Shown here: piece after piece, positions 10,706 to 55,530 of the stretch | How the letters are laid out: every line of letters starts with the position of its first letter | Position numbering within the stretch: the first letter of the stretch is position 1 | Assembly (NCBI GenBank): GCA_965153355.1 | Contig: OZ231126.1 | Span: 7,998,001-8,062,000, forward strand | Direction: 5' to 3' | Source: Flaccisagitta enflata | Taxonomy: Eukaryota | Length of the DNA: 64,000 nt | Notes under the pieces: model-generated | What the model was told of the DNA's origin: nothing | What the model saw: the letters and a program-made list of their open reading frames with translations, nothing else | Databases searched by the model: none | Translations under genes and position numbers: made by a program

Positions 10706-10899
10706 ATATTATCATCGAGACTGTAAATATGCTATGAATAGAAATGAGCTAGAAAGCACGATGAGATGGTACACATGAATTGTCTTTGATCATACAGAGA
10801 ATCGGGTCTTACAGAGGCATACAAATACATCGAAACAAAGGAAAAGAGATAGCCAAACAGCAAAAATGACAGAGTAAGATAATAGATGTACACACGTAC

Positions 10900-28219
<17,320 letters not shown>

Positions 28220-29843: not shown

Positions 29844-31680
29844 AAAGTAAGCAAGTAAAAAGAAAGTAAGTAAAAAGAAAGTCAGTAAGTAAAAAGAAAG
29901 AAAGTAAAAAGAAAGAAAGTAAAAAGAAAGTAAAAAGAAAGAAAGTAAAAAGAAATAAAGTATAAAGAAAGAAAAAACGACAGGGGGTATTAGTAACATA
30001 GACACAGACGCAAAAAAGAAACCAGCCATAATCAAAGAACAGAGAAGGCAGAGAGACAAGCCATAAGGGGAGAGGGAGGAGAGAGGGGAGGGAAGGAGAG
30101 AGGGGAGGGAAGGAGAACGGGAAGAAGGGCAGGGGAGAGAGGAGGACGGGAAGAAGGGAGGGAGATGAGAAGAAGGGACCGAGACGGAGAGGCAGGGGAG
30201 GGAGACGGAGAGGCAGGGGAGGGGTAGGGCAGGGGCAAGGGAAGGAGCCCGCAAGTCGGTACCTCAAGGCGACGGGCGGGCACACGAGCGGCAGCCCCGG
30301 AGACCACAAACAAAAGCCCCATAAGGAGCCAAAAGGTCCACCTTGGACCTGCCCTTGAAAGCGGCCAAGCTTGGAGACTGCTTCAATTCAGAAGGGAGAG
30401 AGTTCCATATCTGGGGAGCAATACTGATAATGGATCTACCATCTGCTCGGCTGACATAGAAGTTACCCCTTGCTCCCCTGGTCAAATGACCATGATCTAC
30501 AAACTTAACAAAATCAGCCATCCCACCCGGTAGCAAACCTCTGGACATTTTGTAGCAGAATATCCTCACACTCTGGGTGAAAAGGTCATCCACTTTGAGT
30601 GTTTCCAGGTCAGCAAAAATAGGGTCCGCATGGGAAATACGATGTGAGCCACTGATTATTCTTACCAAACATTTCTGAAGGGTCAATAAACGATCCCTTA
30701 ACCCAAGGTTACGATCACCCTTAAAATTACCCCAGTTAATCAAACAGTACTGAAGATGGGGAAGGACCATTGTGTTATACAAAAGCAAAAGTTGGGGCCC
30801 ACTCATAAACCTCCTGGCCCGTCCTAAAATTCCTACCGTCTGACTTATCTTAGTTATAATCTTACCAATATGAATCCGCCAGGAGATATTCCTATCAATA
30901 TAAACCCCTAAGAACTTACTATTATCAACTTCTCTTATCGGCATACCATCAATCTCCAAGTCCCAACCCTTATCATTTTGTCCATTTGTTGGTTTGCTGA
31001 AGTTAACAAATTCGGTCTTACCATAGTTTAAGGTTAATTTATTGTGAGCAAACCAACCCGATAATTTCCCCAGCTCTGAATTAACCTCCCTTATCAAATC
31101 CCCCCTGTCCTTACCAGAAGCAAAAAGGTTAGTGTCATCTGCAAACAGGATACACCTGAAGAATGATGATGCGGCCGATAAGTCATTGATATAAAGGAGA
31201 AAGAAAAGAGGACCCAGGATGCTTCCTTGGGGAACTCCAACTGAGAGCACCTGGTGGAGTGACTCAGATTCCCCATATGCCACATACTGTTTCCTGTTTG
31301 TTAGATAGCTCCTAATAAGTTCTAGGGGCAGTCCCCTGACGCCTAAATGTTCCAACTTATCAATAAGGATAGAATGGTCCACGGTGTCAAACGCCTTTCT
31401 GAAATCTATAAATACCCCTAGGCAGTGTCTTCCGCTCTCCCATGCTTGCCTGATATTCTCTACCATGTCCATGATAGCCATGAAGGTGGAATGACCGCGC
31501 CGAAAACCATACTGACTGGCTAGGATGGAACCCCGTCTCCCAAGGAATCCAAGCAGCCTTGTTTGGATGACCCTTTCAAAAACCTTCGACAGGGCAGACA
31601 GCACCGAGATAGGCCGATAGTTTCCCAACTGGGTTGGGTCCCCATCTTTGAAAACGGGCGTCACCCTCGCCACCTTTAAT
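29620..31680 (-). mobile_element. 5'-truncated non-LTR retrotransposon (CR1/L2 group, Crack-like), ORF2 RT and C-terminus at 30264-31680
   Basis: NYRPISVL, QYGFR, DFRKAFDTVDH, GVPQGSILGPLFF, FADDT, KFLGVYID, LQKCLVRII..H..PIF. No endonuclease domain. The low-complexity 3' UTR end is approximate. Confidence 0.9.
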
Positions 31681-31939
31681 TTAATTAATTCCAGGATGAA
31701 GTGGATAGAAATTCGGATGATAAGAATGGATGGAGCGAAGGATAGAGAGAGTGCAGAAGACTACGAACCTTTGACAGAAATATTCAGTAGTTAAATATGG
31801 AAACGCAAATGCTGATAAAATGCCGATAACGTAAACAAGAATATCGTGTTGCGAATCAAGGTTTATTTTTCTACCATGGAAGGAAATGAAACGGATCCCC
31901 GAAAGATCTGACTAGCTAACTAAAGCATCCGGATGTACC

Positions 31940-32890: not shown

Positions 32891-33141
32891 TAAATTCACG
32901 ATGAAAAAAACTGATCTGGGAGGAAGATGCAATGGTTGAGACCCGGCCCCGTCCTATGAATATGCAGTGAAAGACAGTGTGCTGTTTGTGTCCACAACGA
33001 TGATAAAAAAAGAGATTTTGCGAGAAAAAAAACTGAGTTTCTTTTTATCCTCTTATTTTTTTCGACTTCAAAGCAACCTAGTCATAAACCTTCCAATTTT
33101 ATGTTCACAGTGTCGCAATGGTTTGAACCATTTAATGGGTA

Positions 33142-36100
33142 ATGATGATGGCGGCGTCCTCGGCGGCGGCGGCGGCGTCATCTTCAACATCACGAGAGTC
33201 CCCAAATCACCAACCCTCCGTCAACATAGTCAATCCAACTTATTGCCAAAACAAGAGACTCTCGCCTTCTGACTCCACCGTAACGCGCTCCCAACAACAA
33301 TATCGGAGGAGCTCGACCATCATCTTGGCACCGAAGCCTTGGTCCCCGAACAAAGATGACGATCTTTCCAGGGCAGGAGGAGGAGGAGGAGGAGGAGGAG
33401 GAGGAACGCGTTTTCTGTCGGGCAAGGAGATCTTTCAGGCGATCGTTAATAAAAGCGAAACTGATACTGACTTTGGAGACGATGTCTCTTTACCACGCAC
33501 TGCCGCTCTGAAAAACGACACCGGTCCCCACGATTACGCAAATGGTGCCATTTACGCTTCGACGAACAACTTTCGTGGAAATGGAACGCGTACCGGAAGT
33601 AGACTGATGGCTGAAGACGTCGTCGCAGGCGTTGCATATCGTCACGACGAAAACGCAGATTTACCAAATCGGTTTATCCCCGAGAGGGAACCACCTGAGG
33701 TTTGTCGTTCATTATTTTACCATGGTGAAATGGTCACTAAACTGGCACAGTGGCATATATTCGTGACCATATTCTTGCACAAATTACACGCAAACACGTT
33801 TAAAATCTTTTCCTGTTTACAGATTTGCCACAATTGGAACCTTCAGCGAGACATTAACGCAATTACGACCAAAGACGATATCATTGACGATTTGAGGTCG
33901 CGGGATGAGACACATATCATGACAGGCGACCAAGAAGATATCGAGGGAATGAATTTGCGGACAGATGGACCAAACGCTGACGTGTGTAGAAAGTCGCTCA
34001 TCGACGGGCCATTTGATGCGCGTAGACGATCCCTAGTTGAAGGGCCAATCGACGTTCGTAGACGATCCCTAGTTGACAGTGTAATTAATGACGATCGGAG
34101 ACGGTCGCTCGTTGACGATCCCCCACAGTCGGATTTTGGCGCCGAAGATTCACCAGATCGGCGTGGCAGAGGCAGGTCGACAAGCCGAACTTCGGATACG
34201 TACAAAAGGCGTCATCGATCTGTACCATCGAGGAACAAAGCGGAAGAGGATTCATCGGCGATCTCGACAACCTCGACGCCGCGACGTCGGCGAGAATCCA
34301 TGGCGGAAATGAAGCGGAAGCAACTCGACTGCCATCAAAAGTTGCTGCAATGGAAGCAACAAATGCTCATCGCCGAGGACTTGCGGCGGGAGCGACTCAT
34401 GCAACGCGCGTGGCATTTGCTGAGCCTCGAAGATCGGCATCAACGGTTTGAAGAGGATCGCTTCGTTGTCGACGAAGAAGCAATCGAACGCAGTTACTAC
34501 GAGCGAAGCGCCGATAACCGAGGAACCTACGGTAGTGGGCATACCTCTGACGGTGCTTTAAAGATGAGCGACAACAAACCCGATGCCGTGGGGCATACGG
34601 AAAGCGAGGAAAAAAACAAAAACCTAGCAAAACGACAGGAAACCAAAGAAGAAAGAAAGGAATATCGTTTCATAACGAAATCTGGACAAGTGAAGACGAC
34701 GCGACGGCATCGCCGACTGGCGACGCACCCGCGTCGAGGAGAAACCGTCATCCAAGTGGCGCCGAGAAAAAACAAAAGCCAAGACGCGAACAAAAGAACA
34801 ATAGAGAAAGAAACTATGGAAAGAAATGCTCCAGATGATGGATCGAAAGACAAAGGAACGCCAATTAACAAGCCTATGAAAGGCGAAACGAAATCGCCGG
34901 CCGTTCAGCGAAAAAGCCAGGCGCGTTGTTTCCTCACGTCGCCTACGATGGCGCCTGCCTCCATCGAGAACAAGTCCCACCCACTAGCTTCTTTGATCAG
35001 CTCTCAAAACGCCACACATCGTAACGGCGAACGCGAATTCGGGCAACGAAGATCGATCGACGATTCGCAGCTGCTTCATGCCCAATACTGCAGCAGCGGC
35101 GGCAGTGGTCAAAGCAGCAGCGTCAGCGGCGGAAGAGGCAGCGGCGGCAGCAGCGGTCAAATCAGCAGCGCCAGCGGCGGACGGGGCAGCGGCGGGAGCA
35201 GCACGATCCGTTCACCGCTGCCATCCTCGCCGGAAGTAGATTTCGAGCGGGAAATTGACGAATTGGAATCTCTTCTCGGCTGGCCGAAGAATGGAGAAGT
35301 GATGACGCCCGCAGATTGGATGCGGGAAGCGTCAAACGCCGAGTCGACGGACGACTCCGCCGGCGCGAGAAGACGACGCTCGATGACGTCACCGACATCC
35401 TCGTCGACGACGAATTCGATGGAGGAAAGAAGCAACAGGCGTTCGATGGCCGCGCTGGTCGGCCGACATGTGGAAGATGGCGTCATCGATGACGAAACAG
35501 CGAGAAGAGAAAGAAGTCGTGTCTTGAACGTGGCTCAAATAATCGCGAGAGAAGCCCAACAAGAAAGAAATGAACGTAGAAGAGAGTTCGCCGCCAGACA
35601 TGCGAATGACAATCAACAGTTTCACCAACAACTTCAGGAACATCATTTTCAGAAGCAACAATATCAGGATCAGCTTGTCCAAAAGCAAAAAAAATATAAG
35701 GATCAACATTGTCAGAATCATCCCAGTCAACGATCTTTACATATTCACCATCAGCGACAATATCAGAATCCATATCATCAAAATCATCATTCTCAGGATG
35801 AACATCATCAAAATCAATATTATCTCGTTAGGCAATCGTATCAGGAACGAGATCATCAAAATAATCATCAACCCAATCAACAATATCCAGATCAACATAA
35901 AAAATGTGATCCATATTCTCAGGACCGGCTACAGAATCCTTATCAGTATCACTTCCTTTCGCAACAAAATCGCGATGGTTTTCTTAACGTGACGCCACAA
36001 AAGAACAATTCTCACCAAATGAATCATAGAGAAAATATCTACCGCGATGCAAATCATCAACAATCTACCTGGAATCAAATTGACTCGTGTGATGAGAATC

Positions 36101-36192
36101 TTCCATCGATCAATCCTCAGTCTAATAACCTAGAGGCTTATGAAGATCCACATCATGCGCAAAAACACCTCTATTTACAAAAACAACGAAAA

Positions 36193-36236
<44 letters not shown>

Positions 36237-36306
36237 ACAGAGAATAAGGAACCATCAGCGTGGCAGTTTGCCGACCGATTTTCAAGAAGAATCATTCTAT
36301 CTGTAA
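33142..36306 (+). CDS. Uncharacterised, largely disordered ~1,013-1,054 aa protein (S/R-rich, coiled-coil-like segments, Q/H-rich tail); probable in-frame intron 33700-33822
   Basis: 3.1-kb non-repetitive ORF; upstream acceptor ttcacag at 33110; GAG|gtttgt...tttcctgtttacag brackets a compositionally distinct 123-nt segment. Family not recognised. Confidence 0.75.
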
Positions 36307-47900: not shown

Positions 47901-48660
47901 AACACTTGATTGACGATTCGGACCTCAACACTTGATTGACAATGAGGACCTCAACACTTGATTGACAATGAGGACCTCAACACTTGATTGACAATGAGGA
48001 CCTCAACACTTGATTGACAATGAGGACCTCAACACTTGATTGACAATGAGGACCTCAACACTTGATTGACGAAGAGGACAACCTCGACACTTGATTGACA
48101 AAGAGGACAACCTCGACACTTGATTGACAAAGAGGACAACCTCGACACTTGATTGACGAAGAGGACAACCTCGACACTTGATTGACAAAGAGGACAACCT
48201 TGACACTTGATTGACAAAGAGGACAACCTTGACACTTGATTGACAAAGAGGACAACCTTGACACTTGATTGACAAAAAGGACAACCTTGACACTTTATTG
48301 ACAGAGAGGACAACCTCGACACTTGATTGACAAAAAAGACTACCTTGATTTGATTGACGAAAAGGACTACCTCGATTTGATTGACGAAGAGGACTACCTC
48401 GATTTGATTGACGAAGAGGACTACCTCGGCACTTGATTGATGAAGAGGACTACCTCGGCACTTGATTGATGAAGAGGACCACCTCGACACTTGATTGACA
48501 AAGAGGACAACCTCGACAATTGATTGACAAAGAGGACTACCTCGACACTAGACTGATGAAAGGACTACTTCGGCACATGACTCCTGAAGAGGACAACTTC
48601 AACACTTGACTGATGAAGAGGACAACCTCAACACTTGATTGACAAAGAGGACAACCAATG
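44970..48660. repeat. Alternating 25-bp (ttgtccacacttgagactcacgtca) and 29-bp (gacaacctcgacacttgattgacaaagag) satellites
   Basis: Three [25-mer]n-linker-[29-mer]n modules. Confidence 0.95.
45179..45789. mobile_element. Palindromic hAT-like MITE inserted in the 25-bp satellite
   Basis: About 300-bp inverted arms; TAG...CTA ends; 8-bp TSD cttgagac / cttaagac. Confidence 0.8.
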
Positions 48661-48866
48661 TTGTCCTCTAAGAATACCTTAATTCCTTTAGGGAATTCCG
48701 GATTCCTTTCGCCATCCACCCCAATCGACGTGTGGGAATTCGCTCGTCGAAATCTCTCTCAGCGAAAATCCAAACAAAAGGATAAAGCTTTTCCGCCGAG
48801 CCGCATGGTGGCGGCTGGTCTGGGCCTGTCTGGCCATGAACAATAGCCCGTAGCCGGCGAAAAGCC

Positions 48867-51767
48867 TCACTCGTCTGAAGAAGGGGGGCCCTGGGGGGTC
48901 ACCCCCAAATCTCTGCAGTAGAAACGGAAAAACACTTCCGCCCCTGACCAGTCACCAGCTCGTAAAATAGCCTCTACGTCAACTCCACCTGCCAAGGCGG
49001 CGGAGGTGGACATGGCTCTGGTTGAGCCCGGAGGTGCATTAATTCCAGCTTGACTAAGAATTGACTTGAGCCGACGAGAAAAGGCTGATGAGGAAAGGCG
49101 GGCAAACGGTGGTTTGTCCTCGCAAAACAAGTAATCATGACTTATATTAAGCTTATTTCTTTCAGCAATGAGCGCCTCTAAGGCCGAAACAGGGCATATG
49201 GAAGAGTCATTAGGCAATCTGTAAATGATAATGGGCTTACCCATCCGGCCTGCTTTATCTGTCTTACTTAGTTGAGACGGGATAAATCTTGCACTAGTTG
49301 AATTAATGGACAGAAAATTGGCCGAAATTCGGAGGCTTGCTAGTTCGGAAGGTCGTCTAGTAGAAGCCATCGCTATGAGAAATGCAGTCTTTCGGATAAG
49401 AAGATGGAAAGGAGTCGGAGAAGGGAAATCGCGAAGTAATTTTATGACTTCTCCGGCGTTCCAAGAAGGAAAGAGGCGACGCGAAGCTGGGCGTCGGTTA
49501 TAAATACCTTTCATGAGACGTTTGATAAGAGGATGTTGACCCACATGAAAACCGTCAATTGGAGGAAGAGTCATGGAAATGGCTGATCTATGTACATTCA
49601 CCGAAGAGTATTTAAGACCTTTCTTGAACAACATGGAAAGGTAATCGGCGACATTATTTACAGAGACGGAATCGATAGAAATGTTGCGGGCACTGAGGAA
49701 GCGGGAGAAAGAGTCCCAGGCTCGATTGTATCTGTCTCCCGAAGATTTCCTCCATCCATCGGAGATAAGCTCGAAGGCTGCATCTGTAACTCCTGAGAGG
49801 TTGTACGCCCTCCTAAAATCTTCCAAGCGACGAGATGAAGAGACTCTAGAAGAGGAGGTGGAAGATCTGTTGACAGGTCTACTAAAAGGCGGCTGTTGAA
49901 AGGCAGACGTCGAACTTGGAGGACGCGTAGTTGTTGAAGCTTGGGAAACCACGACTGGGCGGTCCAAAATGGAATTATCAGGATGAACACTCCTTGAGAC
50001 AGAAGAAGCTTTTCTATCACTCTCGGAATCAGAGGAAGGGGAGGAAATACATATGCGAGGTTGAAGTTCCAGGGGAGAGACAGAGCATCGAATGCTTCTG
50101 CTGTTGGCGCTTCCCCCCACGCCACGAATCGAGGTAACTGAGCCGATTTGGGGGAAGCGAACAGGTCTATTTCCGGTACTCCCCACAACCGGCATATTTT
50201 GCGGAACACTTTGGGACAAAGGTGAAGGTCCGGAAGCTTCTTGAACCTCGACGCAAAATCGGCGTGAAGGTTTTGATCGGAGGGAACATAAACGGGAATT
50301 ATTGCTACCTGTAATTCCGCTGCCAGGAGGAGAATCTCCGTTGCAATTTTGAGAAGTGGCAGTGAATGTGTTCCTCCCTCCTTGGCGATGTACGACAGGG
50401 CTGTCGTTGAGTCTGTCTCCCAAAGGATTGTTTTTACTGGTTTGGTTAAGGAAGGAAAGTAATCCCGGAGGAATATCAACAATGTCATGGCTTCCTTCGC
50501 ATTGATATGGTGACGGGCAAGAGCACCCCATCGCCCGTTCACCATCTTCCCCATGTAAAACAGGCCCCAGCCCTCGTCTGAGGAGTCTGTTGCCACCGTC
50601 AAATCCGCATCCTCCAGACTCGGGTGCCAGATTGGAGCCTTGCAATTTTCCATTGTCAGGTTCAAGACCCATTTCATCTCCTGCTTGGCTTCCTTGGTGA
50701 GATGGAGATGTAGAAGAAGATCCGAGGAGGTCTTGTAGAATTTGTTTAGACACACTTGGATCTGACGGCAATGGAGACGGATTAAGGGTACTGCTGTTAT
50801 TGCTGCAGTCATTAGCCCCAAAAGCTTCATCACTGAGCGGCATGTCGGAGATGGAAGCGAGAGAAGGAGAGTGGCTTGAGATTGGAGAGCCAATAACTTC
50901 CGCTCCTCCAGAGACACTAACTTGGTCTTGCAATCCCACCAAAGACCTAGAAAGAGGAACCTCTGAGCTGGGATGAGATTCGACTTCTTCCAGTTGATCA
51001 CGAATCCAGCATCCTGAAAGGTTTTCAACGCTAATGTCACAAACCGTTGGCATTCCTCCAGAGTTGTTCCCAATATCAGAACATCGTCCAAATAAAGAAT
51101 TGCCCTGACCCCCTTTGAGCGGAGAAACGCGGCCAGAGGGCGGGTTATTTTCGTGAACAGGAATGGGGCTGTACAGAGGCCGAAAGGGAGCACTAGGAAT
51201 TCGTAGAGTATCCCTTTCCAAACAAAACGAAGAAACTTGCGATGAGTTGGGTGAATTAGAAGGTGAAAGAATGCATCTTTTAAGTCTATGGTGGCCCCCC
51301 AATCGCCGGGGCGAAGGAGAGAGGCCACGTCTCTCACAGTGTCCATCTTGAAATGGGGGGCTGAAATAAATTGGCTGTTTAGCGGCTTCAGATTTATTAT
51401 TGGTCGAAAACCTCCGTCTTTCTTTGGGACTACAAAAATGTTTGACGTGTAGCCCAGGGAGAATGGAACTTCTTGAATAGCCCCCTTTGAAATCAGAGAT
51501 TTTACCTCCTCCTCTATTATCAAAGTCTTCTCCTGAGAAAAGTGATGGCGACGGGATAGGTTGGGAAGGCTGAGGGGGGGAGGGCTTATGAACGGAATTT
51601 TGTAACCTTTTAGAGTGTTCAAAATAAATGGCGGGGCCTTCAGGTGATCTTTCCAGAAGTCCCGAAACAAACTTAAACGTCCTCCGACTATGGGTATTGT
51701 TGATGGCTGTCCCGGAGGAGGAAGGGAAGGAGGAGGAGGAGGAGGAGGAGAATGGCGGCCTTGTCAT
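48867..51767 (-). CDS. DIRS tyrosine recombinase ORF (966 aa; N-terminal part overlaps RT in another frame)
   Basis: C-terminal integrase-like motifs: SSVNVHRSAIS, HPLIKRLMKG, STRRPSEL, SKT, ICPV, GSTR, AGDW, FFRFY. Confidence 0.93.
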   Translation of the reverse strand: MTRPPFSSSSSSSFPSSSGTAINNTHSRRTFKFVSGLLERSPEGPAIYFEHSKRLQNSVHKPSPPQPSQPIPSPSLFSGEDFDNRGGGKISDFKGGYSRSSILPGLHVKHFCSPKERRRFSTNNKSEAAKQPIYFSPPFQDGHCERRGLSPSPRRLGGHHRLKRCILSPSNSPNSSQVSSFCLERDTLRIPSAPFRPLYSPIPVHENNPPSGRVSPLKGGQGNSLFGRCSDIGNNSGGMPTVCDISVENLSGCWIRDQLEEVESHPSSEVPLSRSLVGLQDQVSVSGGAEVIGSPISSHSPSLASISDMPLSDEAFGANDCSNNSSTLNPSPLPSDPSVSKQILQDLLGSSSTSPSHQGSQAGDEMGLEPDNGKLQGSNLAPESGGCGFDGGNRLLRRGLGPVLHGEDGERAMGCSCPSPYQCEGSHDIVDIPPGLLSFLNQTSKNNPLGDRLNDSPVVHRQGGRNTFTATSQNCNGDSPPGSGITGSNNSRLCSLRSKPSRRFCVEVQEASGPSPLSQSVPQNMPVVGSTGNRPVRFPQIGSVTSIRGVGGSANSRSIRCSVSPLELQPRICISSPSSDSESDRKASSVSRSVHPDNSILDRPVVVSQASTTTRPPSSTSAFQQPPFSRPVNRSSTSSSRVSSSRRLEDFRRAYNLSGVTDAAFELISDGWRKSSGDRYNRAWDSFSRFLSARNISIDSVSVNNVADYLSMLFKKGLKYSSVNVHRSAISMTLPPIDGFHVGQHPLIKRLMKGIYNRRPASRRLFPSWNAGEVIKLLRDFPSPTPFHLLIRKTAFLIAMASTRRPSELASLRISANFLSINSTSARFIPSQLSKTDKAGRMGKPIIIYRLPNDSSICPVSALEALIAERNKLNISHDYLFCEDKPPFARLSSSAFSRRLKSILSQAGINAPPGSTRAMSTSAALAGGVDVEAILRAGDWSGAEVFFRFYCRDLGVTPQGPPSSDE
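49658..51763 (-). CDS. DIRS reverse transcriptase-RNase H-methyltransferase-like ORF
   Basis: VGGRLSLF..W start, FVVPKKDGGFRPIINLK, DLKDAFFH, LPFGL, YLDD; RNase H TDSS/HINAKE/TDS/ADFASR; MT-like DLFAS..AYVFPP..W..QSWF. Confidence 0.96.
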   Translation of the reverse strand, partial: QGRHSPPPPPPPSLPPPGQPSTIPIVGGRLSLFRDFWKDHLKAPPFILNTLKGYKIPFISPPPLSLPNLSRRHHFSQEKTLIIEEEVKSLISKGAIQEVPFSLGYTSNIFVVPKKDGGFRPIINLKPLNSQFISAPHFKMDTVRDVASLLRPGDWGATIDLKDAFFHLLIHPTHRKFLRFVWKGILYEFLVLPFGLCTAPFLFTKITRPLAAFLRSKGVRAILYLDDVLILGTTLEECQRFVTLALKTFQDAGFVINWKKSNLIPAQRFLFLGLWWDCKTKLVSLEERKLLALQSQATLLLSLPSPTCRSVMKLLGLMTAAITAVPLIRLHCRQIQVCLNKFYKTSSDLLLHLHLTKEAKQEMKWVLNLTMENCKAPIWHPSLEDADLTVATDSSDEGWGLFYMGKMVNGRWGALARHHINAKEAMTLLIFLRDYFPSLTKPVKTILWETDSTTALSYIAKEGGTHSLPLLKIATEILLLAAELQVAIIPVYVPSDQNLHADFASRFKKLPDLHLCPKVFRKICRLWGVPEIDLFASPKSAQLPRFVAWGEAPTAEAFDALSLPWNFNLAYVFPPLPLIPRVIEKLLLSQGVFILIIPFWTAQSWFPKLQQLRVLQVRRLPFNSRLLVDLSTDLPPPLLESLHLVAWKILGGRTTSQELQMQPSSLSPMDGGNLRETDTIEPGTLSPASSVPATFLSIPSL

Positions 51768-53808
51768 TCTTTGCCGGCCCCCTTGCCGCGAGGGGGGCGG
51801 CTCGTAGCATTTCCCCGCGCAGAAGGCTTGCGGGAAGAAGCTGCCCCAGATTTAAAGTTTTTGCCCCTATTGAAACGAGACTGAGGCTGGCGAGATGCAT
51901 ATGAAAAACTTCCTTTAGCAGCAGGCAAGAAACGGCGGGAAGACTTGTCATCCAAGGACCGAAGCATGAAAGCACTTGAAATGGCTGAGTTGACTTTCTC
52001 TGATTCATTGCCAAAAAAATGAGAGGCAGATGGTTTGGCCTCTTTCAATGCAGACTTAAGTTGTCGGGCTTGAGGAGAGGCAATGACAAGCCGACGGACA
52101 TCTTTAACACAGTTGTTGGAAACAGCTGCAAAGCACGTAGTTGCATCAGAAATTGGCGAGAGAACACTAGACTTAAATGAGTCCTTCGTAGTTGATCGCC
52201 ATTCAGCCCACTCCTCTCTGGAGGGTGGGTTCTTGGGCAGCTCACTCAAGAAGCACTGAATAAAGGCCTTTGCCGATAAAATTGCGTGAGCAGCCGCACC
52301 GGTACAATTCATGGTCGAATTGAGCAAGTTGAACTGAGCCCTAGACTTGGTTTTGACATGTTCGAAGGCGGCGGAAAGAGAATCATCTGCCTTGGGAGCT
52401 GCAAAGGAAGGGGCACCAATTGCATGTGCCCATTTACGTTTGAAACGATTTGTTGAAATGCGGTCCCAATCAGAGGACATTTTACCAAAGGCCAGCTCTT
52501 TAGAAGGACCTTTGTCCGTAGAATCAGACTCGGTAGTTGCATCAGAGAGGCAACGGGCTGTAAGCCACTGGGATTTGACCCATTTGCCCTCTGTCACGTA
52601 CTTCCATGAACGTTTGGAAGACTGAATCGATTCCTTAGAGGAATTAGACTCGGCATCAGAAGGATGAACATCTTCTATGTCCGAGGCCGCACGGGATTGC
52701 TCCGACGAAGATAAAGGCGATTTATCCATCTGGCGATAACGTTTGGTTCGACCAGAGGATGTGCGGCAGGGGGACAAAGGACGCTTCTGTCCTCGACCAG
52801 AAGCCCCCCCTCCTTCTGCTTATAGTATGACGTCATCAGTCATAGAGCAGAAGGGAACACAATGGAGGGACCGGAAACATGGTTTCACAATGTGTTTTAC
52901 CGGAATGAATGGATGAGGGACCGGAAAACATGGTTTCGATCATCATTCCGGAGTCAAAAATCACGAGGAACAGATTGGAGAGAGAAAGCGCAGCAGGCGA
53001 AAGGAAAGTTGCGTAACACATGAAAGAAAGAAATCACAAAAAAATTTAACCCCAATATACTACGATGACTCCCAGCCTAATCCCCACCAGAGGTGGAGAC
53101 TAGGGGTGGAAGGTGGGAATCGATTGGGGTGGATGGCGAAAGGAATCCGGAATTCCCTAAAGGAATTAAGGTATTCCATTTCGCCATCCACCCCAATCGA
53201 CGTGTGGGAATATGCAAAGAACAGGAGGAAGCGTAGGAATGTAGAGCGGTGATTGGGGTGAGCAAGCGCAAGGAAGAAAACCGACCTGGCTGAGACGTTG
53301 GAATCTTAGATAGAGCGTCAGAGAGCAAAGAGCGCAATTGGCCAAAGTCGGCATCTCGTGATTTTGACTGACCAGGTCCACTTGACTGATCTGCAGGCGT
53401 CACGCGGACCGAGCGGTCAAGACGGGAGCGGCTGGCACGGGTCTGGTCACCTACTTCAGCTCTAGCTCCAGCAAGAGACTCCAAAAAAGCGGCCGAGCGT
53501 TTTGGAGATTTGTGTGACGAAGATTCGGGAGGACGAAAGTAGCCAGTAGGAGGAAGGTAACACTCCTCATCATTGGCAACGAAAGCGTCATATTGCGATC
53601 GATATTCGTCTTCGTATTCATTATGATCGGAAAAACTATCGTCCGGAGTGCGGTCCCACCGCGGCGAGAAGGCGCGTTCCTTACGACTTCGATCACGATT
53701 CTCGTCACATTCACGGAGAAGCCTACGCGCTTCGTCATAATCTTGATGAGCGCGAGACTCGGGAGACAAACTTTGCTCCCAGTTTTCATCATCAGAAATC
53801 TCATCCAT
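51764..53808 (-). CDS. DIRS gag-like ORF1, predicted two exons (53808-53286 and 52815-51764)
   Basis: Position upstream of RT; basic C-terminal tail; CAG|gtcggt ... aagcag|AA joins the two ORFs in frame (phase 1). Splicing is inferred, not shown. Confidence 0.7.
53120..53211. repeat. DIRS internal complementary region (ICR)
   Basis: 53120-53176 is the reverse complement of 48672-48728, and 53173-53211 is the reverse complement of 54137-54175; the two halves overlap at ATTC. Confidence 0.95.
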
Positions 53809-54175
53809 GATGGAAGAGTTTTCACTTGATTTAGATACGATTTCAAGTTCGATCGTTTAGAAGAAAAATGCGACTAAACGAGATAAATGGAAGTGCAATC
53901 AAGACATAAAATGCAATGCACGACGAAAAAGCAGATCAATGTTAATAAACATTTAAATAAAATAATCGAAAAATACGTGTTTACACGAAGCGTGAGCGAA
54001 TAGAAGTGAGGCTTTTCGCCGGCTACGGGCTATTGTTCATGGCCAGACAGGCCCAGACCAGCCGCCACCATGCGGCTCGGCGGAAAAGCTTTATCCTTTT
54101 GTTTGGATTTTCGCTGAGAGAGATTTCGACGAGCGAATTCCCACACGTCGATTGGGGTGGATGGCGAAATGGAAT

Positions 54176-55530
54176 TACGACATTCTCCTCATTAATAATC
54201 ACGACATTGTCCTCAGTAAGAATCAGGACTGTCCTCAGAAGAATCACAACATTGTCCTCATTAAGAGTCGCGACATTGTCCTCATTTCAGAGTCGCGACA
54301 TTGTCCTCATATGAGAATCACGACATTGTCCTCATATGAGAATCACGACATTGTCCTCATATGAGAATCACGACATTGTCCTCATTGAGAATCACAACAT
54401 TGTCCTCATAAAGAATCACGACAATGTCCTCATTAAGAATCACGACATTGTCCTTATTGAGAATCATCACATAGTCCACGTTAACAATCACGACATTGTC
54501 CACATTGAGAATCACTACAATGTCCTCGACATAGTCCCAGGGATGTATATAGTTCTATGATCTTTGATTAGTTGCCCCCCCCCGCCTTTGATTTTCTTCC
54601 CCTTGACGCGTTGCGTCGAATTACAAAATCAATGATTTTCTTCCCTAAATAGCAGTAAAATAGTATTTTTAAGGTTTAAATAGTGTTAAATTGTGTTTCA
54701 CTAATCATTTTTATGATTTGGTACTACGATAAGTTTTATTTTCCCCAAATTTTCTTTTTTTCTCCCCTTGATTTTTTCCCCAATCTCCAAACCCTTTATT
54801 TTCCCCCCCCCCACCGGGGGGGGGGGAATGTAAAACAATATACAGGCCTCCATTGTCCTCATCAAGAATCACGACATTCTCTTTGTTATGAATCATGACA
54901 TTGTCCTCATTAAGAATCACAACATTGTCCTCAATAAGAATCATGACATTGTCCTCGTTAAGAATCACGACATTGTCCTCGTTAAGAATCACGACATTGC
55001 CCTCGTTAAGAATCACGACATTGCCCTCATTCAGAATCACGACATTGCCTTGTTAAGAATCACAACATTGCCCTCGTTAAGAATCACGACATTGCCCTCG
55101 TTAAGAATCACGACATTGCCCTCGTTAAGAATCACGACATTGCCCTCGTTAAGAATCACCACATTGCCCTCGTTAAGAATCACCACATTGCCCTCGTTAA
55201 GAATCACCACATTGCCCTCGTTAAGAATCACGACATTGCCCTAGTTAGGAATCACGACATTGCCCTAGTTAGGAATCACGACATTGCCCTCGTTAAGAAT
55301 CACGACATTGCCCTCGTTAAGAATCACGACATTGCCCTCGTTAAGAATCACGACATTGCCCTCGTTAAGAATCACGACATTGCCCTCGTTAAGAATCACG
55401 ACATTGCCCTCGTTAAGAATCAAGACATTGCCTTGTTAAGAATCATGACACTGCCCTCGTTAAGAATCATGACATTGCCCTCGTTAAGAATCATGACATT
55501 GCCCTCGTTAAGAATCACGACATTGCCCTC
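54176..55530. repeat. 24-bp satellite (acgacattgtcctcattaagaatc)n; further blocks at 56975-57192 and 58578-62462
   Basis: Direct tandem copies. Confidence 0.95.
54538..54850. mobile_element. hAT-like MITE inserted in the 24-bp satellite
   Basis: Imperfect ends cagggatgtata / tatacaggcctc; flanks catagtcc / cattgtcc. Confidence 0.55.

Follow-up and report, generated by a model that had tools for sequence, protein, structure and literature searches.

A DIRS1-like retrotransposon of Flaccisagitta enflata with its internal complementary region in a candidate intron near the 5' end

The element and its insertion site

The stretch of Flaccisagitta enflata DNA considered here (assembly GCA_965153355.1, contig OZ231126.1, positions 7,998,001 to 8,062,000; the whole 64,000 nucleotides (nt) are called the window, and positions are counted from its first letter) contains a DIRS1-like tyrosine-recombinase retrotransposon at 48672-54175, which has the structural characters of such elements except the position of the internal complementary region (ICR). 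Judged from the sequence, the ICR has moved from its usual place beside the 3' repeat into a non-coding spacer of 470 nt within the 5' coding region, and this spacer has the outline of a GT-AG intron. The element is read on the minus strand, so that its 5' end has the highest coordinate. The element and its termini are as follows.

48672 to 54175, minus strand: complete DIRS1-like retrotransposon of 5504 base pairs, inserted at a lone ATTC of a 24-nt satellite without target duplication.
54005 to 54175, minus strand: left terminus, consisting of a 165-nt inverted terminal repeat (ITR; 54005-54169) and 6 terminal nt.
48672 to 48871, minus strand: right terminus, consisting of a 165-nt ITR (48707-48871) and a right extension of 35 nt, to which only the ICR has a match.

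The two ITRs are inverted and 100% complementary over their 165 nt. When the two flanks are combined they make up one unit of the 24-nt satellite with a single ATTC, and since they rejoin in this way no target site was duplicated at the element. ATT is found at both the start and the end of the element, giving the NTT termini complementary to the junction that characterise DIRS1-like elements; according to the available portion of the metazoan catalogue (PMC3266345), ATT is at both ends in most of the catalogued members. The pol open reading frame (ORF) has a reverse transcriptase (RT) domain, RVT_1 (E-value 1.8e-22, 80.5 bits, Pfam cut-off 29.6), while the recombinase ORF has Phage_integrase (E-value 1e-06, 29 bits, cut-off 27.1), indicating a tyrosine recombinase rather than a DDE integrase, and Phage_int_SAM_1 (E-value 2e-05). 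The initial annotation, made from the letters and a list of ORFs, had named a DIRS1 retrotransposon, and this identity is borne out by RVT_1, Phage_integrase, the ITRs and the ICR, all of which were found.

With perfect ITRs, perfect ICR arms and every ORF open, the element is intact and recently inserted. A tblastn search with the element proteins found no second copy in the window. A PAT- or Ngaro-type element was also considered and is ruled out, because the terminal repeats are inverted and there are neither long direct terminal repeats nor split direct repeats (A1...B1A2B2). The insertion is at the edge of the 24-nt satellite (48600-48671 and 54172-54527 of the window); within about 15 nt of the element's 3' end the array meets a 29-nt satellite head-to-head, with a short palindrome at the junction.

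Coding layout

From 5' to 3', the coding features of the element are the following.

53286 to 53808, minus strand: ORF1a up to the proposed splice donor, 174 codons and 1 nt, with its ATG at 53808; conserved in three related families.
51767 to 52815, minus strand: ORF1b, Gag-like, 350 codons after the proposed acceptor; it opens at 52819 after a TAA and has no ATG before its conserved N-terminal motif.
51764 to 51766, minus strand: the TGA at which ORF1b stops, in the frame of pol and with C as the next base; it overlaps the ATG of the recombinase ORF (51765-51767).
49661 to 51763, minus strand: pol ORF, 701 codons in the frame of ORF1b, with RVT_1 at residues 112-274; its first methionine is inside the RT domain.
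48870 to 51767, minus strand: recombinase ORF, 966 codons from its ATG and in a different frame from pol, the whole of which it overlaps.

ORF1a is the only ORF with a conserved start region, and without splicing it is open from the ATG to a stop at 53077-53079. ORF1b has no ATG between the TAA and the invariant motif GQKRP..SP.R, its first ATG in the element is codon 32, beyond that motif, and no methionine column is conserved in the family; pol has no methionine before the RT domain. Neither ORF1b nor pol thus has a usable start of its own in the element, and both depend on a start upstream. The stop of ORF1b and the start of the recombinase ORF overlap as ATGA, the TGA being followed by C and then by a CCT-rich run, with pol in frame behind. 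This arrangement points to read-through as the probable source of Gag-Pol and to re-initiation for the overlapping ORF of 966 codons.

The position of ORF1b, upstream of pol and in the same frame, fits Gag. ORF1b matched 0 Pfam families and had 0 matches in a profile search of the PDB; its AlphaFold model has a mean predicted local distance difference test score of 42.4 and is unusable, and an Atlas cluster at rank 13, with LAP2alpha on 22% of its members and a score of 0.89, is a lead only. ORF1a matched no Pfam family and nothing in the Atlas. The tyrosine recombinase domains occupy the last 344 residues of the recombinase ORF. In the 427 residues that follow the RT domain there is space for further domains, and no Pfam match to RNase H or methyltransferase-like domains was found there up to an E-value of 10; the motifs TDSS..GWG and DLFAS...FPP are visible in this region and may belong to domains of these kinds.

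Proteins related to ORF1a and ORF1b are cited by number below. P0009, an ORF1a-like protein of 213 residues, and P0014, an ORF1b-like protein of 373 residues, have source contigs that are both 5577 long, which is approximately the size of the element, and on this ground a family with about 65% identity in ORF1b has the two-ORF layout as well. Another database relative, P0010, is 97% identical to ORF1a over 33 residues and then continues into unrelated sequence; its downstream motifs resemble those of a DNA-methyltransferase or transposase-like protein. P0010 is a chimeric or interrupted copy.

The internal complementary region

The ICR lies downstream of the conserved part of ORF1a.

53120 to 53211, minus strand: ICR, 92 nt, with a left arm at 53173-53211, a right arm at 53120-53176 and a 4-nt junction overlap.

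The left arm (39 nt) is 100% complementary to the left end of the element (54137-54175) and the right arm (57 nt) is 100% complementary to the right end (48672-48728), so that the ICR is indeed a copy of the joined element ends, as the initial annotation had described it. It lies 964 nt in from the 5' end and 4448 nt in from the 3' end, and the right ITR is 4248 nt downstream of it; the first two distances had been given there as about 1 kb and about 4.4 kb. A 22-nt core shared by the ICR and the ITRs occurs four times in the window, each time inside the element, with 0 occurrences expected by chance. In RNA the ICR forms a long perfect hairpin, and the folding z-score of the spacer is -7.6. 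In two descriptions of DIRS1-like elements (PMC3266345, PMC8969392) the ICR stands beside the right ITR, at the 3' end, in agreement with the canonical position given in the initial annotation; this position is not used there as a criterion.

Two related proteins run into an ICR. P0008, which has 66% identity to ORF1a, reads into an ICR that differs from that of the element at three residues, and P0012 reads the left arm and the junction in another frame; in both, the ICR comes directly after ORF1a. As far as proteins can show, the 5' position of the ICR is thus a trait of the family. A search with the tail encoded by the ICR returned P0008 as the sole protein match, and the 22-nt core had no match in genome and viral contigs. 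If the ICR had been placed by recombination in this element alone, and the split of the first coding region were damage, then a single rearranged or defective copy would be expected, and a single copy is what the window contains. Such a history is nevertheless very improbable: the same order is found in P0008 and P0012, related families such as those of P0009 and P0014 have separate ORFs of like size, and a copy with perfect ITRs, perfect ICR arms and all ORFs open is not what damage would leave.

Boundaries of the spacer in related proteins

The spacer that holds the ICR can be delimited as follows.

52816 to 53285, minus strand: proposed GT-AG intron of 470 nt (467 nt with the AG at 52819), phase 1, 64% pyrimidine.

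The donor is cAG/GTCGGT, with the first intron base at 53285 and a glycine codon divided as G/GT at 53286/53285; the acceptor is aagcAG/AA, with the last intron base at 52816 (52816/52815). Removal of the 470-nt interval would join 523 nt of ORF1a to 1049 nt of ORF1b as 524 codons in frame, which is the join that had been proposed initially, and the CTGAT and the TAA reported with it were read at 52839-52835 and at 52822-52820, the TAA standing directly before the opening of ORF1b. The acceptor itself is ambiguous, since four AGs in phase, 3 nt apart (52819, 52816, 52813, and 52810), are all compatible with the donor; use of 52819 would add one alanine codon. The acceptor originally named, 52816, is therefore present and in frame, but it is only one of four that fit.

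Relatives of ORF1b form six clusters with 62-85% identity and 343-373 residues, and they become conserved from the residue whose codon spans the proposed acceptor. Across four families, the 20 residues that follow the acceptor agree at 68 of 120 pairwise positions and the 12 residues before it (8 in P0002) at 4 of 60. P0004 and P0013, which belong to one 90% cluster, are different upstream of the boundary, yet in the 20 residues displayed downstream of it they do not differ. At the boundary itself stands alanine, leucine, isoleucine or valine followed by glutamate or valine, which is compatible with ..A/G.. in every family where both are visible.

On the donor side, a full HMMER scan of 1.84 billion representatives with the first 174 residues of ORF1a returned five proteins of 116-237 residues. 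Three of them (P0008, P0009, and P0011) reach the donor boundary, and all three have glycine at the donor codon, as in the element (GGT). Before the donor 50 of 126 positions are identical and after it 11 of 60; P0009 stops 8 residues after the donor glycine and P0011 stops after 17. Between the donor and the ICR, P0008 is in a different frame from the element and then returns to the element's frame, which implies frame-shifting indels within about 7 codons of the donor. These patterns mark out a non-coding spacer with sharp boundaries at the proposed donor and acceptor, and give indirect support to the proposed intron. The DNA of the relatives was also sought, with the ORF1b alignment against metagenome and viral contigs and with pol against metagenome contigs, and there was no match.

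The same proteins bear on the suggestion that ORF1a is translated through the ICR to the stop at 53077, as a protein of 243 residues, with the ICR doubling as coding sequence. The frame of ORF1a is open across the ICR in both the element and P0008; this openness was rejected as evidence of coding, because the frame of P0008 before the ICR differs from that of the element. The early ends of P0009 and P0011 past the donor glycine and the low identity after the donor likewise speak against coding, and the similarity of the ICR between relatives can be attributed to its role in replication. Translation through the ICR is accordingly improbable.

Composition and splice signals of the spacer

Two further features lie within the spacer.

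52821 to 53059, minus strand: AG-free zone before the acceptor cluster, with 0 AG against 7.1 expected; it includes a distal pyrimidine tract (52959-53008).
52862 to 52937, minus strand: 25-nt direct repeat in two copies (52862-52886 and 52913-52937), inside the spacer.

The pyrimidine content of the spacer exceeds that of the flanking coding parts, where it is about 52-53%, and the distal tract (53008-52959) is 80% C+T. The weak pyrimidine tract of the initial annotation therefore holds for the bases next to the acceptor, where there is no tract, but not for the spacer as a whole. From 53061 to 52820 there is an interval of 241 nt without AG that ends at the acceptor cluster; the mean spacing of AG in the element is 18.8 nt, and none of the 16 dinucleotides has a longer gap anywhere in the element. 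Every dinucleotide except AG occurs in the 239-nt stretch within it, and zero AG was obtained in 19 of 100,000 shuffles of that stretch. When the 465 nt of the intron that precede the first acceptor-cluster AG were shuffled, an equally long AG-free tail appeared in 1 of 20,000 shuffles. Introns with distant branch points have this kind of layout, in which an AG exclusion zone comes after a distal pyrimidine tract.

A local standard for splice sites is provided by three canonical introns in the host gene for HMG-CoA reductase, whose exons lie at 10735-13446 of the window on the minus strand (PF00368, E-values 5.8e-38 and 1.8e-09). The window thus derives from a eukaryote with introns. The donors of these three are GTACAA, GTAAGT, and GTACGT, and all three acceptors have a strong pyrimidine tract ending in CAG.

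Part of the 25-nt repeat motif reappears, translated as KPCFRSL, in P0025 and P0028, which are from a family about 63% identical in ORF1b, and this recurrence suggests that the repeat is a conserved non-coding motif. A perfect 10-nt palindrome containing TGACGTCA is found at 52827-52836, 10 nt ahead of the CAG acceptor. The window has no second copy of it, and 10 of 100 shuffles contain one. The palindrome could be a promoter element or a splicing element, and the N-terminus MTDDVI of the closest relative is compatible with its conservation.

Splicing or separate cistrons

Several observations weigh against splicing. The donor GTCGGT is weak, having a C at +3, the 30 nt that lead up to the acceptor are purine-mixed rather than pyrimidine-rich, and both sites are weak beside the three host introns. 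Fusion in frame was rejected as evidence in itself, given that 106 of 859 GT..AG pairs give an open fusion. No protein that fuses ORF1a and ORF1b is found among the six near-length ORF1b matches (343-373 residues) or the five ORF1a matches; a search for a longer fused protein gave 0 matches, and none is present among the 36 of 38 cluster members listed (109-389 residues). In the relatives, the GT, the AG, and the phase are read from residues only. Finally, ORF1b could start on its own in several relatives, where an ATG stands in frame 8 to 38 codons before the acceptor boundary. None of 12.16 million records read from one RNA run fell on 48872-54180, a result that carries no weight for or against splicing.

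If there is no splicing, then ORF1a and ORF1b are two cistrons, with an intercistronic spacer that holds the ICR; translation of ORF1b would start at an ATG within the spacer, or on a subgenomic RNA that an internal promoter produces, and the element would have lost its ATG to the TAA. In keeping with this, P0002, P0004, P0005, P0013, P0025, and P0035 are called with such upstream starts, and the closest relative reads MTDDVI.. straight into ORF1b where the element reads MTDDVIL and then a stop. The TGACGTCA palindrome or the conserved motif of the 25-nt repeat could serve as the promoter element, the weakness of the splice sites by host standards would need no explanation, and Gag-like clusters named in the Atlas have 248-391 residues, the size of ORF1b alone, although this is a lead only. 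However, the positions of the upstream starts are not conserved, and the sequence between them and the boundary is identical at the 4 of 60 positions given above and carries indels within one 90% cluster. There is no upstream start in the young copy studied here or in P0016 and P0017, a start at the first ATG of the element would leave the invariant N-terminal motif untranslated, and the AG-free zone has no explanation in terms of separate cistrons. Separate cistrons are unlikely on this balance, though by no means negligible.

Splicing of the spacer is favoured, if only by a little: that 52816-53285 is a real GT-AG intron is slightly more probable than not from these patterns. The gag intron of the initial annotation is thus supported in part and indirectly, by the conservation boundaries, the indels, the startless ORF1b, and the AG-free zone, and is qualified by the weak donor and the missing proximal tract. 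To go by its composition and the relatives, the spacer most likely acts as a GT-AG intron that is weak and regulated, its pyrimidine tract distal and its AG-free zone long.

A possible role for the proposed intron

Introns are expected to disappear from retrotransposons, since the copying of spliced RNA back into DNA removes them, and each of the few retrotransposons that retain an intron needs a special explanation. In the mechanism proposed here, transcripts would start from the left repeat and be spliced inefficiently. Splicing would join ORF1a, which has the sole conserved start (ATG 53808), to the startless Gag-like ORF1b to give a protein of 524 residues, and read-through of the in-frame TGA (followed by C) on the spliced RNA would give Gag-Pol. 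The unspliced RNA would code only for ORF1a and would keep the ICR. Only the complementary DNA (cDNA) of unspliced RNA could then use the ICR to rebuild and join the ends of the element, so only it would integrate, and the cDNA of spliced RNA, having no ICR, would be a dead end, which would explain how a retrotransposon could keep an intron. The dead end is suggested by Dictyostelium DIRS-1: according to the available portion of PMC7192593, cDNA is still made from DIRS-1 without the ICR, but retrotransposition is not completed.

We infer that the RNA of the element would be split into a spliced messenger and an unspliced genome. The fuller proposal is that this is a lineage of DIRS1-like elements with a true spliceosomal intron in gag that holds the ICR, so that the split is obligatory and the intron is protected from loss; the spliced RNA would give Gag and Gag-Pol but no cDNA that can integrate, and the unspliced RNA would replicate but give no Gag-Pol. 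This proposal is tentative, and its chances are put just short of even.

If the spacer is spliced, then the solution to the problem of intron loss is a simple one, in that the sequence needed to finish replication is removed together with the intron. DIRS elements would thereby come to resemble retroviruses and some long terminal repeat (LTR) elements in keeping the RNA that is translated apart from the RNA that is replicated. To our knowledge, the expression of DIRS elements is almost unstudied outside Dictyostelium. An ICR that works far from the 3' repeat would also constrain models in which single-stranded cDNA folds on itself to restore the ends. Even without splicing, a 5' ICR throughout the family matters for those annotation tools that look for the ICR near the 3' end.

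Other features of the window

A second RT ORF of 498 residues is found at 30267-31760 on the minus strand (RVT_1, E-value 8.4e-33), and near it is an ORF of 1056 residues at 33136-36303 on the plus strand that has no Pfam match; the two are probably another retroelement. Long open frames at 14164-17227 and 23950-25780 consist of minisatellites with periods of 18 to 118 nt, are open on both strands, and translate as poly-N/T/Q-like and His/Asp-rich sequence; these are probably non-coding arrays that stay open by chance. The part of the window from 40 to 64 kb is mostly made up of related satellites of 24 to 30 nt.

Comparison with known systems

The element shares with Dictyostelium DIRS-1 and the metazoan DIRS1-like elements catalogued by Piednoel et al. 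2011 (PMC3266345) an RT and a tyrosine recombinase, ITRs, and a two-armed ICR that is complementary to both termini and whose arms overlap briefly at the junction. Also shared are ATT at both ends together with AAT at the junction, an extension on the right (of 35 nt here), and the absence of target duplication, as is the long overlap of the recombinase ORF with pol, which is a known trait of DIRS1 elements in the available text of the same catalogue. The ICR arms of 39 and 57 nt are inside the published range, as far as it is given there. The element differs from these relatives in the place of its ICR, which stands between two 5' ORFs at 964 nt from the 5' end, and in its divided first coding region, of which one ORF has a start and the other, Gag-like, has none. 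The literature on DIRS and tyrosine-recombinase elements that was searched for the word intron mentions none in a DIRS element, engineered marker introns apart, and no 5' ICR in a DIRS element is described in the literature searched, a search that did not extend to key DIRS reviews, Repbase, or Dfam; the novelty of the 5' ICR with an intron layout is therefore provisional.

Internal repeats that pair with the termini are found at different internal positions in different PAT/Kangaroo lineages, according to the portion of PMC4157794 that is available. These translocated repeats resemble the ICR of the element in their mobility, but they are split direct repeats, while the element has inverted termini and a palindromic ICR.

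In retroviruses, the packaging signal is present only on unspliced RNA. Splicing also divides the RNA pools of BARE and of Arabidopsis Ty1/Copia, as described in the available parts of PMC3735527 and PMC5580714, respectively. The logic proposed for the element is the same as in these three systems, with a cis signal for replication confined to unspliced RNA and with spliced RNA being translated. Their signal governs packaging or the dosage of gag, so far as those sources describe it, while that of the element would be a template for rebuilding the ends, and in contrast to all three the Gag and Pol of the element would come from the spliced and not from the unspliced RNA. The principle of partition by splicing is thus already known, and its embodiment in this element appears to be new.

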